DNA of 64,000 bases, from the NCBI GenBank assembly GCA_035493235.1, contig DATJIP010000106.1, forward strand, positions 26,610 to 90,609. The letters are read 5' to 3'. Origin of the DNA: Steroidobacteraceae bacterium (lineage in GTDB: Bacteria; Pseudomonadota; Gammaproteobacteria; Steroidobacterales; Steroidobacteraceae). This document shows, piece by piece, positions 1 through 4,182 of this stretch. How positions within the stretch are numbered: position 1 is the first letter of the stretch; every line of letters begins with the position of its first letter. Below the pieces are notes generated by a model. It was given only the letters and a program-made list of their open reading frames with translations, had not been told where the DNA came from and did no database searches. The translations under genes were made by a program, and so were the position numbers.

Positions 1-1371
1 ATATCGAAGCCGACTGAACCACGGATGCGGGTAACTTTCCGGCAGCGTGAAGCTATCGCGCAGCTGCACACTCACGAGCTGCGAGCCCATGAGCAGGGCA
101 GGGCGGATATCGCTCAGCTTTCCGCCGAACAGCCAACGCCGGATCGATCTCAGCAGCACGGCGCCTGTCGATCGCTCAGTGCGCAGCGCGACTTCAGATG
201 CGAGTCGCAGCGCTGCGAACCGCGGCCCGTGGCGTCGCAAGTAGTCGGTCACCGCATACGAGAAGGAGTCGCTGCAGAATCCAGAGTCGCCGCCGTCGCC
301 CGTGAACACTGCGCTGACTTTGCGTTCAACCGCCAATCGATGATCGAGCGTACTGCGCATCATGTACGACAGCAGCGACTGCGGCTCAGTTGCTGGGCGC
401 TCGCGCACCAGATCGGCAAAGTTGATCTCGGCAGGAAGGACCGGGCACTCAAGATGCTCGAAACCGCTGTGTTCAGCCGCGAGCCGCGCCCATGGACGCT
501 CGTCCGAACGACCTTGCGGGTTGAAGAACGTGTAGCACGCGATTCGCGGTTGCGTGGAAGCGCGAGCGAGACAGCCAGCGATGATCGAAGAATCCAGTCC
601 GCCAGACAGTCGGTGCAGCAAGCTCGCGTGGCCGGCCGACAGCGTTTGCGTGCACGAGCGGACGGTGGCGCGCACGGCGGTGGCCGCATGCACTGGATCT
701 TCGATCACGCTTCGCCGCTGCAAAAACGCGAAGGGATCCCAGTAGAAGCACCGTGATCGCAGCGTCGGACGCCTCGCGGGATCGATCTCGACACACTCGC
801 CGTGACGGATCTGCCGTACTTTCTCGAGCGCATCGGTCGCGACGTCGTTGAAGCCGAGTACGCGCTCGCGCAGATACGCGCGGTCGACGCCGAATCCTCG
901 CACCCCGAGCTCGATGCAAGCGCCGACGTGCGAGAACAGAATCGTGACATCTTCGAAGCGGGTTTCGAAGCAGGGCAGCGTGCCCGTTGGATCTTTCAAC
1001 ACGCGAACGATGCTTGCAGCGGCGGCGCGAAGTAGTGCGACGTAATTACCCCAGCAGTTCTCGATCAGCCATCGCCCTTTGCTGGCGAGGATCGCCTCGC
1101 AACTGCGCGCGCTGAGAACTGCGCGTCGCGCCGGGGAATCGTCGTCGACGTCGCGGTTACGCTCAAACAGAGTCCCGAGAATCACGCCGGCGTTGCGTGC
1201 GAGCGGCAGTGCTCGCAGCGTGCCGCCTTCGTCCGCACAGAACACCCGCAGTCCAGGGCTGGCGAATGCACGCGTCCAATGCCTAGCGCGCAGCCGCTCG
1301 TCCAGCGAGTCCGCCGTGCGGGATTGCTGCTCGTCGATGACGTTCCAGACGAGCGCAATGTAGCGAAACAT
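1..1371 (-). CDS. Lasso peptide cyclase (asparagine synthetase-like C protein), 3' end runs off the window
   Basis: Manually translated open frame of 457 codons from ATG 1371 (MFRYIALVWN...) with no stop to base 1. Motifs VLKDPTGTLPCF, LSGGLDSSII (PPi loop) and FTGDGGD. Lies downstream of lasso B and the precursor. Confidence 0.9.
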   Translation of the reverse strand, partial: MFRYIALVWNVIDEQQSRTADSLDERLRARHWTRAFASPGLRVFCADEGGTLRALPLARNAGVILGTLFERNRDVDDDSPARRAVLSARSCEAILASKGRWLIENCWGNYVALLRAAAASIVRVLKDPTGTLPCFETRFEDVTILFSHVGACIELGVRGFGVDRAYLRERVLGFNDVATDALEKVRQIRHGECVEIDPARRPTLRSRCFYWDPFAFLQRRSVIEDPVHAATAVRATVRSCTQTLSAGHASLLHRLSGGLDSSIIAGCLARASTQPRIACYTFFNPQGRSDERPWARLAAEHSGFEHLECPVLPAEINFADLVRERPATEPQSLLSYMMRSTLDHRLAVERKVSAVFTGDGGDSGFCSDSFSYAVTDYLRRHGPRFAALRLASEVALRTERSTGAVLLRSIRRWLFGGKLSDIRPALLMGSQLVSVQLRDSFTLPESYPHPWFSRLRY

Positions 1372-1425
1372 GCGCGCCCCTTAGCGGGCCCATTCTTGTT
1401 GTTGCCCGCGCGGATCTTGTTGTCG

Positions 1426-2145
1426 TCAAACCGTCAGGATCGGCGTGTACTCGCAAACCTGCTCGGGATTCGCGTCGAGCAGCAGCTTGCCCTGTTGCAC
1501 CCAGGCGTGCGCTCCCCAGGGCTGCGCACGCACACCGATCACCCAAGTCGGAAACACGTCATGGCGCGCCATGAATCGCACCAGCGCCAGCGAATGGAAC
1601 AGGCAGCGGTCCCGCGCTGCGAACGTATGCGGCCGCAGCCGCCGGAAGAGCCCGACCAGTTCGACGGCTCTCTGCTCGTCGAAAGCGCCGCTCGCGGCGG
1701 CCTTCTGATCGCGGACTTCGCTCGCGATTGCGTACAGAGTGCGCGAGCGCAGAGCATGACGCGTCCAGGCGAGCGCGCCGAGAAAACTTGCGATGTGGGC
1801 CAGGCGCAGCGACGTGCTGCGGCTCAACTCGTGTCCTGCGCTGCTGAGAACCCCGCCCAGATCCAGCGGTGGAGCACCGAAACTCGTGCGCTCGGCAGGA
1901 GGATCGCGACTCAGCAACCCGGCATCGAGCAGCGCGTCGGCCATGGCGATGGCTGCGTCGGGTGCGAGCTGTTCGACGGCGGCCGCGCTACCGTTTGCGT
2001 CATTCCAGTTCAGTGCGAGCGTCGCGAGCGCACGCGCTTCGGTCGAGCCGATGCCGAAGTATCGATTGCGCTTCAAATCCAGCAGGATCGTGCTGGCGAG
2101 CAGCGGACAAACTCGAACGTGCGCAGGAATCCAGTATTCGTGCAT
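1426..2145 (-). CDS. Lasso peptide B protein (N-terminal RRE-like region + transglutaminase-like leader peptidase)
   Basis: LLDLKRNRYFGI N-terminal segment; C-terminal DRCLFHSLAL...VIGV...GAHAWVQ...LLD Cys-His-Asp triad. Start at 2145 or 2181. Confidence 0.9.
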   Translation of the reverse strand: MHEYWIPAHVRVCPLLASTILLDLKRNRYFGIGSTEARALATLALNWNDANGSAAAVEQLAPDAAIAMADALLDAGLLSRDPPAERTSFGAPPLDLGGVLSSAGHELSRSTSLRLAHIASFLGALAWTRHALRSRTLYAIASEVRDQKAAASGAFDEQRAVELVGLFRRLRPHTFAARDRCLFHSLALVRFMARHDVFPTWVIGVRAQPWGAHAWVQQGKLLLDANPEQVCEYTPILTV

Positions 2146-2188
2146 AGAGAAGGCGGGTGCGTGCCCGGCACGCACCCGCAACGATCGC

Positions 2189-2305
2189 TCAGAACGGCAG
2201 CAGACCGAAGGCAGTCAGGTTGTCGATGAACAGCGGCAGCACGGCGATTTGCCGCGTCTCGACCATTGCATCTCCGAGATCCACGAGCTGAAGTTTGATC
2301 GTCAT
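2189..2305 (-). CDS. Lasso peptide precursor A, MTIKLQLVDLGDAMVETR-QIAVLPLFIDNLTAFGLLPF
   Basis: Manual translation. AAGGGGA RBS upstream of ATG 2305; leader motif LVDLGDAxxET with Thr at -2; directly upstream of B and C. Confidence 0.88.
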   Translation of the reverse strand: MTIKLQLVDLGDAMVETRQIAVLPLFIDNLTAFGLLPF

Positions 2306-2746
2306 GACGGTTCCCCTTGTTGAAGTAACTTGGCTTGCGAAACGAATCTCCCTGCGCGCGCAAACCTGCGCCTATGTACGATGATGTCAATAAGCAGCGA
2401 TATCATTCGCGCGCGTTTGCGTGCACATATCTATGGATGTGCGTAGTTAGGACTATTCGGCAAAGCACGAGCGAAGCTGCGGTCGCGGTGACAGTCTTGG
2501 CTTATTGGAAAATATCTTTCGCTCGTTGGCGCCAATTGCTTCGATCGATGGCGAAGGATGCAAGCCAACAACACTTGATCTGACACAGACACTGCGTTGC
2601 GCGTACGTGTGCACGCGGCGGCGAAATTACTGCAGCAATCGCAAGGCTTTGCAGGCCGCAGTGAGTCGTGCGGGCGAGCTCGCGCGGTACACCCTTAAGC
2701 CCGCGCGCGCAGGGTTGTGGCAGGTTGCTGGCGAAGGACAACGCCG

Positions 2747-3111: not shown

Positions 3112-4182
3112 TCAGCGGCGGGCGCCGGCGCTGACTCGCGCCGCCGTCGCAGGTGCGTGGCTGGCGTTCGAGTACAGCTCTCCTTCCGACTCTTCCTCTT
3201 CCTCGAGTTCGACCTCGACCTCGACCTCCCACTGCGGCTCCGATACTTCTAGTTGGATGCGTGCGAGCGGTACGACGTCGTGCAACGCCGTCAGCTTGAA
3301 CAGCTCCGGTCGGCACAGACGATAGCGACTGACGGCAACGGAGAGCGTCGAAGGATCGCGACGCAGATAGCGCGCGACTTCGCTCAACGTTGCCACGCGC
3401 CGCTCGGTCGCATACCAGGCGATGAGTGCGCGTGCGAGTGTGACCTCACGCTGACGTGAGTTCGAGAGCACGTGCTCGCGATCGACGCCGAGCCGGCACG
3501 TCACGGTCTGGATGATCTGCTCCAGCGTGAGCTTGCTGCGATAGACACGCAGGTGGCGCGGCAGGTTCTCGAGGAACTCCGGACTCGCGACGATGCGTGC
3601 ATCGTGCCTGCTGCCGTGTTCGAACAGGGTGCACTCCTCATGCACCGGCGCGACCGCCATGAACTCGGCGTATTCGCTGTTCTGATCGCACCCGCTCAGC
3701 AGCTTCATTGCCGTGCGCGTGGTCAACCAGGGGATCTCGACCTTGCCGAGATATGCGCCATGGCTCGTAAACGGATACGCAGTGGGATCGCCGCCCAGTC
3801 CCTCGCTGACCGGCAGGTGATGGATGTAGCGGACCAGCTTCAGCAGGTACGCATCGGGATCGATCAGGATCGCCTTGTAGCGCTGCCGGAAGAAGTGGCC
3901 GTACTCCGCTGCGCGCTCATGAATGCTGCGCGCGTAGCGACTGGTGATGCCCTGCATGAAACGTCCGACCGACACGCTGTCGATCTGCAACGCGATGTGA
4001 ATTGCGTCTGGTGTCCAGCAGTACGCATGCAGACGCGCGCCGGTCCGGCGCAGCGCTGTTGCGAGCAGACGTTCGAAGAGCTGGTAGTCCGTGTGCTGGG
4101 AGAAGATGGGGCGAGTCGTACTGCCCCGCTGGACTACGTAGTACGTTCCTCCCGGAACGTGCAGTCGTTGACGACGCGACAT
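3112..4182 (-). CDS. RAYT/Y1 HUH transposase-like protein with C-terminal DnaA domain IV-like HTH; HUH motif degenerate
   Basis: PGGTYYVVQRG...PIF, AYCWTPDAIH (canonical AYCLMPNHxH), RFFxQRYKA-like segment, YPFTSH; C-terminal SRQREVTLARALIAWY...RRDPSTL; GGAGG RBS. Confidence 0.8.
   Translation of the reverse strand: MSRRQRLHVPGGTYYVVQRGSTTRPIFSQHTDYQLFERLLATALRRTGARLHAYCWTPDAIHIALQIDSVSVGRFMQGITSRYARSIHERAAEYGHFFRQRYKAILIDPDAYLLKLVRYIHHLPVSEGLGGDPTAYPFTSHGAYLGKVEIPWLTTRTAMKLLSGCDQNSEYAEFMAVAPVHEECTLFEHGSRHDARIVASPEFLENLPRHLRVYRSKLTLEQIIQTVTCRLGVDREHVLSNSRQREVTLARALIAWYATERRVATLSEVARYLRRDPSTLSVAVSRYRLCRPELFKLTALHDVVPLARIQLEVSEPQWEVEVEVELEEEEESEGELYSNASHAPATAARVSAGARR

Follow-up and report, generated by a model that had tools for sequence, protein, structure and literature searches.

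The high stability of lasso peptides makes them valued scaffolds. Clusters of the isopeptidase type combine a GntR regulator, the genes A-B-C-E, a TonB transporter and a sigma/anti-sigma pair (PMC9266682), and the parts of that paper and of a preprint (bioRxiv 10.1101/2020.11.25.399105) dealing with ring size give 7 to 9 residues for natural lasso rings. Metanodin, a soil-metagenome lasso peptide from a Steroidobacterales-type host, was reported in J Nat Prod in 2025; its precursor had been missed by antiSMASH, and its authors remarked that a relative from the Steroidobacteraceae has Gln as residue 1 (PMC12670498). Here a lasso locus has been analysed at the left edge of a 64,000-nucleotide stretch of DNA from a soil bacterium of the Steroidobacteraceae (the window), which corresponds to positions 26610-90609 of the 99-kb contig C106 (DATJIP010000106.1, assembly GCA_035493235.1). 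The left flank was retrieved as locus L002, in which coordinates equal window coordinates + 14610; labels of the type L0xx or L1xx designate the loci compared and G0xx the genomes. As judged from its genes, the locus is related to the isopeptidase-type clade, minus the isopeptidase and the GntR regulator of that clade. It contains a precursor, a leader peptidase and a cyclase (A1, B1 and C1) and, outside the window, a second set of the same three genes (A2, B2 and C2; Table 1).

On balance, we lean towards the view that a Steroidobacteraceae clade naturally makes 10-residue lasso rings, in which an invariant Asp10 is linked to Gln1, Cys1, Met1 or Glu1, breaking both the 7-9 rule and the rule of a small first residue. 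Two such systems would lie tail to tail in this locus, one sterically plugged and the other locked by a disulfide between Cys1 and the C-terminal Cys, both tied to a module made of a TonB-dependent receptor, a FecR protein and an extracytoplasmic function (ECF) sigma factor, without the usual isopeptidase. The narrower proposal that A1-B1-C1 is a working class-II-type lasso pathway, forming one half of the tail-to-tail pair and with a predicted 10-residue-ring product, is held with good confidence.

The preliminary description of this DNA, made from the window alone, had proposed a 38-codon minus-strand open reading frame preceded by a ribosome-binding site, followed by a B protein with a Cys-His-Asp triad and by an asparagine synthetase-like C protein running off the window. 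The frame translates as proposed, and its ribosome-binding site is kept as AAGG(G/A)GAA in 9 relatives in an alignment of the upstream regions. B1 is a fused protein in which a recognition part at the N-terminus is joined to a transglutaminase-like Cys protease at the C-terminus. It matches Pfam Transglut_core3 (PF13471; 56.7 bits, cutoff 26) and NCBIfam lasso_biosyn_B2 (NF033537; 66.4 bits, cutoff 33), and an alignment of 7 homologues shows no variation at Cys181, His213 or Asp224. The N-terminal half of the B proteins is likewise conserved, including the motif LLDLKRNRYFG. An alternative TTG start of B1 at 2181 would overlap the hairpin lying between A1 and B1. The contig continues beyond the window edge and the C1 gene is whole: the full protein matches nearly the entire Asn_synthase profile (PF00733; 95.8 bits), carries the PP-loop SGGLDS at residue 256, is free of internal stops and can be aligned over its full length with C2, its paralogue, and with its orthologues. 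A truncation or frameshift of C past the edge, named in the preliminary description as the outcome that would speak against the pathway, was sought in the left flank, where C was found complete with 608 aa. The complete A, B and C sequences thus support an intact pathway for a peptide made on ribosomes and modified after translation (RiPP), with an uncharacterised product. As read from their sequences, A1, B1 and C1 are ordinary lasso biosynthesis enzymes in the ordinary gene order that had been claimed for them; what sets the locus apart from ordinary lasso clusters is the combination of the predicted rings, the convergent arrangement of its two sets and the isopeptidase-free receptor module.

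Several observations indicate that the short precursors are more than chance reading frames. A peptide identical to A1 was found on 111 public contigs, A1 orthologues of four cultured species are present in RefSeq, and the same leader occurs in orthologues and paralogues at about 60 loci. The ratio of nonsynonymous to synonymous polymorphism (pN/pS) is 0.30 for A1 as a whole (leader 0.18, core 0.43; 11 close orthologues) and 0.41 for A2. After nearly every related precursor of both families, a hairpin is found at the site matching that of the A1-B1 hairpin, with different stem sequences. Purifying selection, the conserved post-stop hairpin and the recurrence of the exact peptide therefore argue that both precursors are genuine. 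An attenuator or stabiliser is often found between lasso A and B genes; the A1-B1 hairpin fits this pattern and, separating the precursor from B-C, probably either terminates transcription in part or stabilises the transcript. A1 and its orthologues are called by public gene callers, but solely under the name 'hypothetical protein'. RODEO and antiSMASH score precursors on Gly, Ala, Ser or Cys at position 1 and on an acceptor at 7-9, which is probably why these precursors have kept that name, even in the RefSeq genomes of cultured strains.

The position of the leader cut was deduced from the comparison with canonical systems. The leader, ending in DLGDAxxET followed by R or K, aligns with canonical Gly1 leaders, the LG pair and the Thr at -2 being invariant, and weakly matches the benenodin leader model, which bears out its earlier assignment as a typical proteobacterial lasso leader. 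Thr is the penultimate residue of the leader in both sets (VETR/Q in A1 and METR/C in A2, the slash marking the predicted cut), and the column occupied by Gly1 in canonical systems contains Gln, Cys, Glu or Met in the Steroidobacteraceae family. With this register, Asp10 is the lone acidic residue among the first 12 positions in 26 of the 27 distinct Gln1 cores, the exception being L060 with Asp9, and in all 11 distinct Cys1 cores; the Met1 core (L059) has Asp10 only, as does the Glu1 core (L013) apart from its own Glu1. Each of these 11 Cys1 cores contains a single further Cys, located at the C-terminus. This strict pairing points to a disulfide in the mature peptide and hence to a Cys1 that is not removed with the leader. 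Both A1 and A2 violate the acceptor rule (Asp or Glu at core position 7, 8 or 9), and of the two, Gln1 of A1 fails the small-residue-1 rule (Gly, Ala, Ser or Cys) while Cys1 of A2 conforms. Other Steroidobacteraceae clusters with a nearly identical leader end have a spacing of 9 residues, from Glu1, Gln1 or Asp1 to Asp9 (DLGDARVETR/EIGARQQQD9N, ETK/QPPEGPIRD9N and TK/DFSGGWAWD9). A conserved Asp-Asn/Ser pair stands at 9-10 in those clusters and at 10-11 here, as if the ring had gained one residue. Precursors with Asp1 were also seen in L092, L096, L105 and L109, from other Steroidobacteraceae genera (TK/DFSGGWAWDSL and TR/DTHVMGGFDD at the start of the core), with Thr1 in L078 and Ala1 in L085; the first-residue diversity of the family extends well beyond Gln and Cys.

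In a maximum-likelihood tree of the cyclases, all the non-Gly1 systems fall in one Steroidobacteraceae clade with 100/100 support and all the Gly1 systems lie outside. Within it, the cyclases of the Gln1 systems and those of the Cys1 systems are well-supported sister groups distinct from each other, so that the twin arrangement reflects an old duplication. C2, encoded on the opposite strand, ends 4 nt past the stop codon of C1, matches PF00733 (89.3 bits) and carries the PP-loop SGGLDS at residue 260. Identity reaches 45% between C1 and C2, end to end, and 50% between B1 and B2. A2-B2-C2 is restricted to the window's own clade, in at least 7 independent metagenome-assembled genomes (MAGs), an occurrence for which an assembly artefact was rejected as the source of the twin arrangement. 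A recent tandem duplication was also rejected, C1 and C2 being only 45% identical and placed in separate clades with 100/100 support.

According to the proposed mechanism, B1 would bind the DLGDAxxET motif and cut after Arg18, two residues past the invariant Thr. In an ATP-dependent reaction, C1 would then adenylate the side chain of Asp10, the sole acidic residue of the A1 core, and join it to the alpha-amine of Gln1, giving a 10-residue macrolactam. The product of A1 would be this ring threaded by a 10-residue hydrophobic tail, with an expected mass of 2183.239 Da; the tail has a computed grand average of hydropathy of 1.47, and no ionisable side chain is left in the predicted product. The product of A2 would have a Cys1-Asp10 ring and a Cys1-Cys20 disulfide, with an expected mass of 1997.909 Da. 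The Gln1-Asp10 and Cys1-Asp10 rings, with a disulfide likely in the latter, are thus predicted to be an uncharacterised variant limited to a Steroidobacteraceae clade.

The same enzymes could also make a true lasso after a cut placed one residue later, behind the Gln of A1 or the Cys of A2, with Thr at -3; the A1 product would then be an Ile1-Asp9 ring of 9 residues with a mass of 2055.181 Da. Such a cut would bring all the rings of the clade into the 7-9 range of the literature (9 here, 8 for L060, L077 and L079, and 7 for L061). It would also let residue 1 differ freely from one close orthologue to the next (I, L, W, Y, F, S and V; T, N and S) beside an invariant -1 residue, the reverse of the usual situation, and would leave the strict pairing of Cys1 with the C-terminal Cys unexplained. 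Furthermore, the invariant Thr(-2) aligns with the Thr(-2) of Gly1 relatives having homologous B proteins, and residue 1 of metanodin is the residue directly following Thr-x. The later cut is therefore considered unlikely. A lower probability still is given to an unthreaded product, either branched-cyclic or linear with Gln1 closed to pyroglutamate (2184.223 Da), the 10-residue ring being too wide to trap the tail. A larger ring is indeed harder to plug, the only bulky residues of the A1 tail are Phe15 and Phe20, and an exposed Gln1 cyclises readily as a matter of general chemistry; however, the cyclase is intact, has kept its PP-loop and is conserved with the precursor in dozens of genomes, the invariance of Asp10 would be needless for a linear product, and members of the A2 family seem to carry an additional disulfide by which a wide ring would be locked. 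A silent or degenerating relic making no product, for which split C, B2 and receptor frames in one related long-read MAG (L004/L037) might plead, is very improbable, since all the frames are open at this locus, both precursors are under purifying selection, synteny is conserved across genera and the split frames, confined to one or two long-read assemblies, resemble indel errors.

A threaded 10-residue ring on Gln1 or Cys1 thus remains our preferred reading of the locus, and the following points count against it. A 10-residue ring departs from the 7-9-residue range of all characterised natural lasso rings, and no natural 10-residue lasso ring was found in the searchable open-access literature. 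The N-terminal domain of B1, expected to be of the recognition-element type, is weakly detected, residues 29-86 giving a sub-threshold match to the PqqD-type model NF033530 (E 0.005; 17 bits for a cutoff of 70). Searches of PDB sequences by phmmer and by profiles did not detect any relative of B or C with a solved structure. Upstream of A1, a scan for sigma-70 consensus promoters gave no match. ABC (ATP-binding cassette) exporters are absent from the 18-kb locus, and the interval bounded by the DHDPS/TauE genes on one side and the ADH gene on the other contains no ABC gene at all. Finally, no Pfam signalling domain was found in the N-terminal extension of the receptor, and the STN domain was not found in its first 180-197 residues, even at E values up to 10.

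Table 1. Coordinates of the features of the twin lasso locus (window and L002 numbering; contig C106 positions where given).
Feature	Coordinates	Strand	Description
Precursor A1	window 2189-2305	minus	38 codons, reads MTIKLQLVDLGDAMVETRQIAVLPLFIDNLTAFGLLPF; 18-aa leader MTIKLQLVDLGDAMVETR and 20-aa core QIAVLPLFIDNLTAFGLLPF
Ribosome-binding site AAGGGGA	window 2312-2318	minus	6 nt ahead of the A1 ATG, read directly
Hairpin between A1 and B1	window 2153-2179	minus	12-bp stem with 10 G-C pairs, 3-nt loop, then CTTCTCT
Leader peptidase B1	window 1426-2145	minus	239 aa from the conserved ATG (most likely start)
Cyclase C1, first 457 codons	window 1-1371	minus	runs 456 nt further left of base 1
Cyclase C1, full	L002 14155-15981 (C106 26154-27980)	minus	608 aa
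Conserved blocks upstream of A1	window 2385-2516	minus	candidate promoter/operator; 9 orthologous upstream regions aligned
Block GATAT(T/A)TTCCAATAAGCCAAGACTGTCAC	window 2488-2516	minus	
Palindrome GCACAT-CCATAGAT-ATGTGC	window 2423-2442	minus	N8 spacer
TTGACA	window 2385-2390	minus	
Y1_Tnp (IS200-like)/DnaA C-terminal helix-turn-helix protein	window 3112-4182	minus	356 aa, co-oriented, upstream of A1
Second lasso set A2-B2-C2	L002 11330-14151 (C106 23329-26150)	plus	complete
Precursor A2	L002 11330-11443	plus	reads MEQLEIIDLGDAMMETRCTSVPAVSVDSLYGPGHARC, core CTSVPAVSVDSLYGPGHARC
Leader peptidase B2	L002 11563-12267	plus	
Cyclase C2	L002 12286-14151	plus	621 aa
Conserved block upstream of A2	L002 11162-11195		about 34 nt
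ECF sigma, FecR/DUF4880 anti-sigma, TonB-dependent receptor	L002 6426-11068	plus	upstream of A2; receptor of 1002 aa (plug and barrel)

An isopeptidase or a transporter had been anticipated to the left of base 1, which proved correct only in part. Neither an isopeptidase nor an ABC exporter is encoded there; the left flank contains instead the second, convergent lasso set, the TonB-dependent receptor, the FecR protein and the ECF sigma factor. No isopeptidase of the S9 prolyl-oligopeptidase family was detected in the 18-kb locus or in the orthologous loci, and in the genome, whose completeness is estimated at 100%, the family S9 isopeptidases lack a close homologue, the best match being 24% identical. 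The receptor, FecR and ECF sigma genes adjoin the lasso genes in every orthologous and paralogous locus. From this conserved neighbourhood, and by analogy with what has been proposed for isopeptidase-type clusters, we infer that the module most likely senses or re-imports the peptides, possibly as part of surface signalling, although here there is no isopeptidase by which they could be made linear. A conserved block precedes A2, in which an ECF-type -35/-10 pair was sought and none could be assigned with confidence.

The 18-kb locus also lacks a GntR regulator. The gene upstream of A1 encodes a protein with matches to Pfam Y1_Tnp (38.6 bits) and Bac_DnaA_C (34.8 bits), which is syntenic in every orthologous locus with 64-92% identity, including those of cultured Steroidobacter and Peristeroidobacter; its relatives precede A in the paralogous clusters L060 (26% identity) and L061 (44%). 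Its constant position and orientation across genera indicate that it is not a mobile element here, and it may be the regulator of the cluster, taking over the role that GntR usually has. Between this gene and A1 there is a conserved intergenic region of 800 nt. The symmetry of the palindrome contained in the conserved blocks upstream of A1 is preserved by paired changes, GCATAT..ATATGC being found in relatives, and inside it ATATCCATA agrees with the DnaA-box consensus TTATCCACA at 7 of 9 positions. This resemblance, beside a gene for a DnaA-type helix-turn-helix protein, is suggestive. A scan of the whole locus against Rfam gave no match.

The search with the B protein among GTDB species genomes retrieved Steroidobacteraceae loci and, further out, loci of Roseateles, Pelomonas, Rubrivivax, Paucibacter, Paremcibacter and Vitreimonas. 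The order ADH, (Nudix), Y1_Tnp/DnaA-type gene, A-B-C, convergent receptor, FecR and ECF sigma is kept across genera, cultured Steroidobacter and Peristeroidobacter included. In L059-L061, the nearest paralogous clusters of the family, an S9 peptidase gene lies between C and the receptor gene, and the Roseateles relative L062 encodes an S9 peptidase as well as an ABC exporter. In one long-read MAG (L004/L037 and G007:C9:610359-614062), the orthologues of C1, C2, B2 and the receptor gene are broken up into several frames, which is probably the result of assembly indel errors and not of decay.

Satellite units made of A and C only were observed in two genomes of the same genus (L115 9606-11637 and L116 9371-11385, in G023 and G017, respectively) and also in L031 and L032. 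A Gln1-Asp10 precursor lies directly upstream of the cyclase in these units, with a TonB-family gene upstream and a convergent TonB-dependent receptor downstream, and no B gene was found within 9 kb on either side; removal of the leader would therefore need a B protein encoded elsewhere. The G023 genome gave 15 cyclase-like matches and several other relatives 5-7, and by these counts the genus is unusually rich in lasso clusters.

If the proposed rings are real, they would be the first natural lasso rings of 10 residues, unless metanodin already has one. They would provide, for engineering, cyclases tolerating wider rings and a wider choice of first residues, and would show how a wide ring stays threaded. 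The association of a TonB-dependent receptor and a sigma/anti-sigma pair without isopeptidase bears on what the lasso peptides of the isopeptidase clade do for their producers. As cultured isolates carry orthologous clusters (Steroidobacter agaridevorans SA29-B, S. gossypii S1-65, S. flavus CGMCC 1.10759, Peristeroidobacter soli JW-3 and P. agariperforans KA5-B), the prediction is open to a direct test by liquid chromatography-mass spectrometry.

Among the known systems, those of the astexin/benenodin/sphingopyxin type have a similar leader, as reflected in the weak match to the NCBIfam benenodin model, and likewise a TonB-dependent receptor and a sigma/anti-sigma pair by the A-B-C genes. They differ from the present locus by their isopeptidase, by a GntR regulator at the place occupied here by the Y1_Tnp/DnaA-type gene, by Gly1 where Gln1 or Cys1 is found here, and by an acceptor at 7-9 and not at 10. 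The rubrivinodin/rubrinodin-like clusters of Rubrivivax, Roseateles and Pelomonas (L062-L068, L070 and L072) contain the closest B proteins of Gly1 systems (32-37% identity) and share the (D/E)LGDAKxxT leader. Their cores carry Glu9-Asp10, so that Asp10 of the present family aligns just after their acceptor, only the Asp having been kept. These clusters are distinguished by Gly1, by Glu at 8-9, by cyclases lying outside the Steroidobacteraceae clade and, in L062, by the ABC exporter and the S9 peptidase.

Disulfide-bearing lassos are known in class I (siamycin and sviceucin, with Cys1) and in class III (BI-32169, with one ring-to-tail disulfide); they are actinobacterial, with split B1/B2 proteins and rings of at most 9 residues. 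A2 resembles them by its Cys1 and its single C-terminal Cys, a pair kept throughout its family and suggesting a ring-to-tail disulfide lock, but is accompanied by a fused B protein, belongs to a gammaproteobacterial host and has an Asp10 acceptor. Closure of a 10-mer ring by a lasso cyclase has been obtained with an unnatural fusilassin variant, as cited in bioRxiv 10.1101/2020.11.25.399105; that variant was engineered as a substrate for a cyclase from actinobacteria, unlike the natural, conserved family described here.

Metanodin shares with this locus a proteobacterial A-B-C cluster with a fused B protein, a Thr at -2 and a non-Gly first residue bearing an amide, which is Asn in metanodin, as supported by mass spectrometry, and Gln here; its cluster contains an isopeptidase, whereas none is found here. 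Its tail (NIQGDHGLNI, followed by the stop) gave no match in JGI metagenome contigs. Metanodin is described as a 20-residue peptide with a 10-residue linear tail and a 'macrolactam ring (fragment b10)', the ring size being called 'expected' (PMC12670498); from this text, metanodin itself could have a 10-residue ring, as predicted for the products of A1 and A2.

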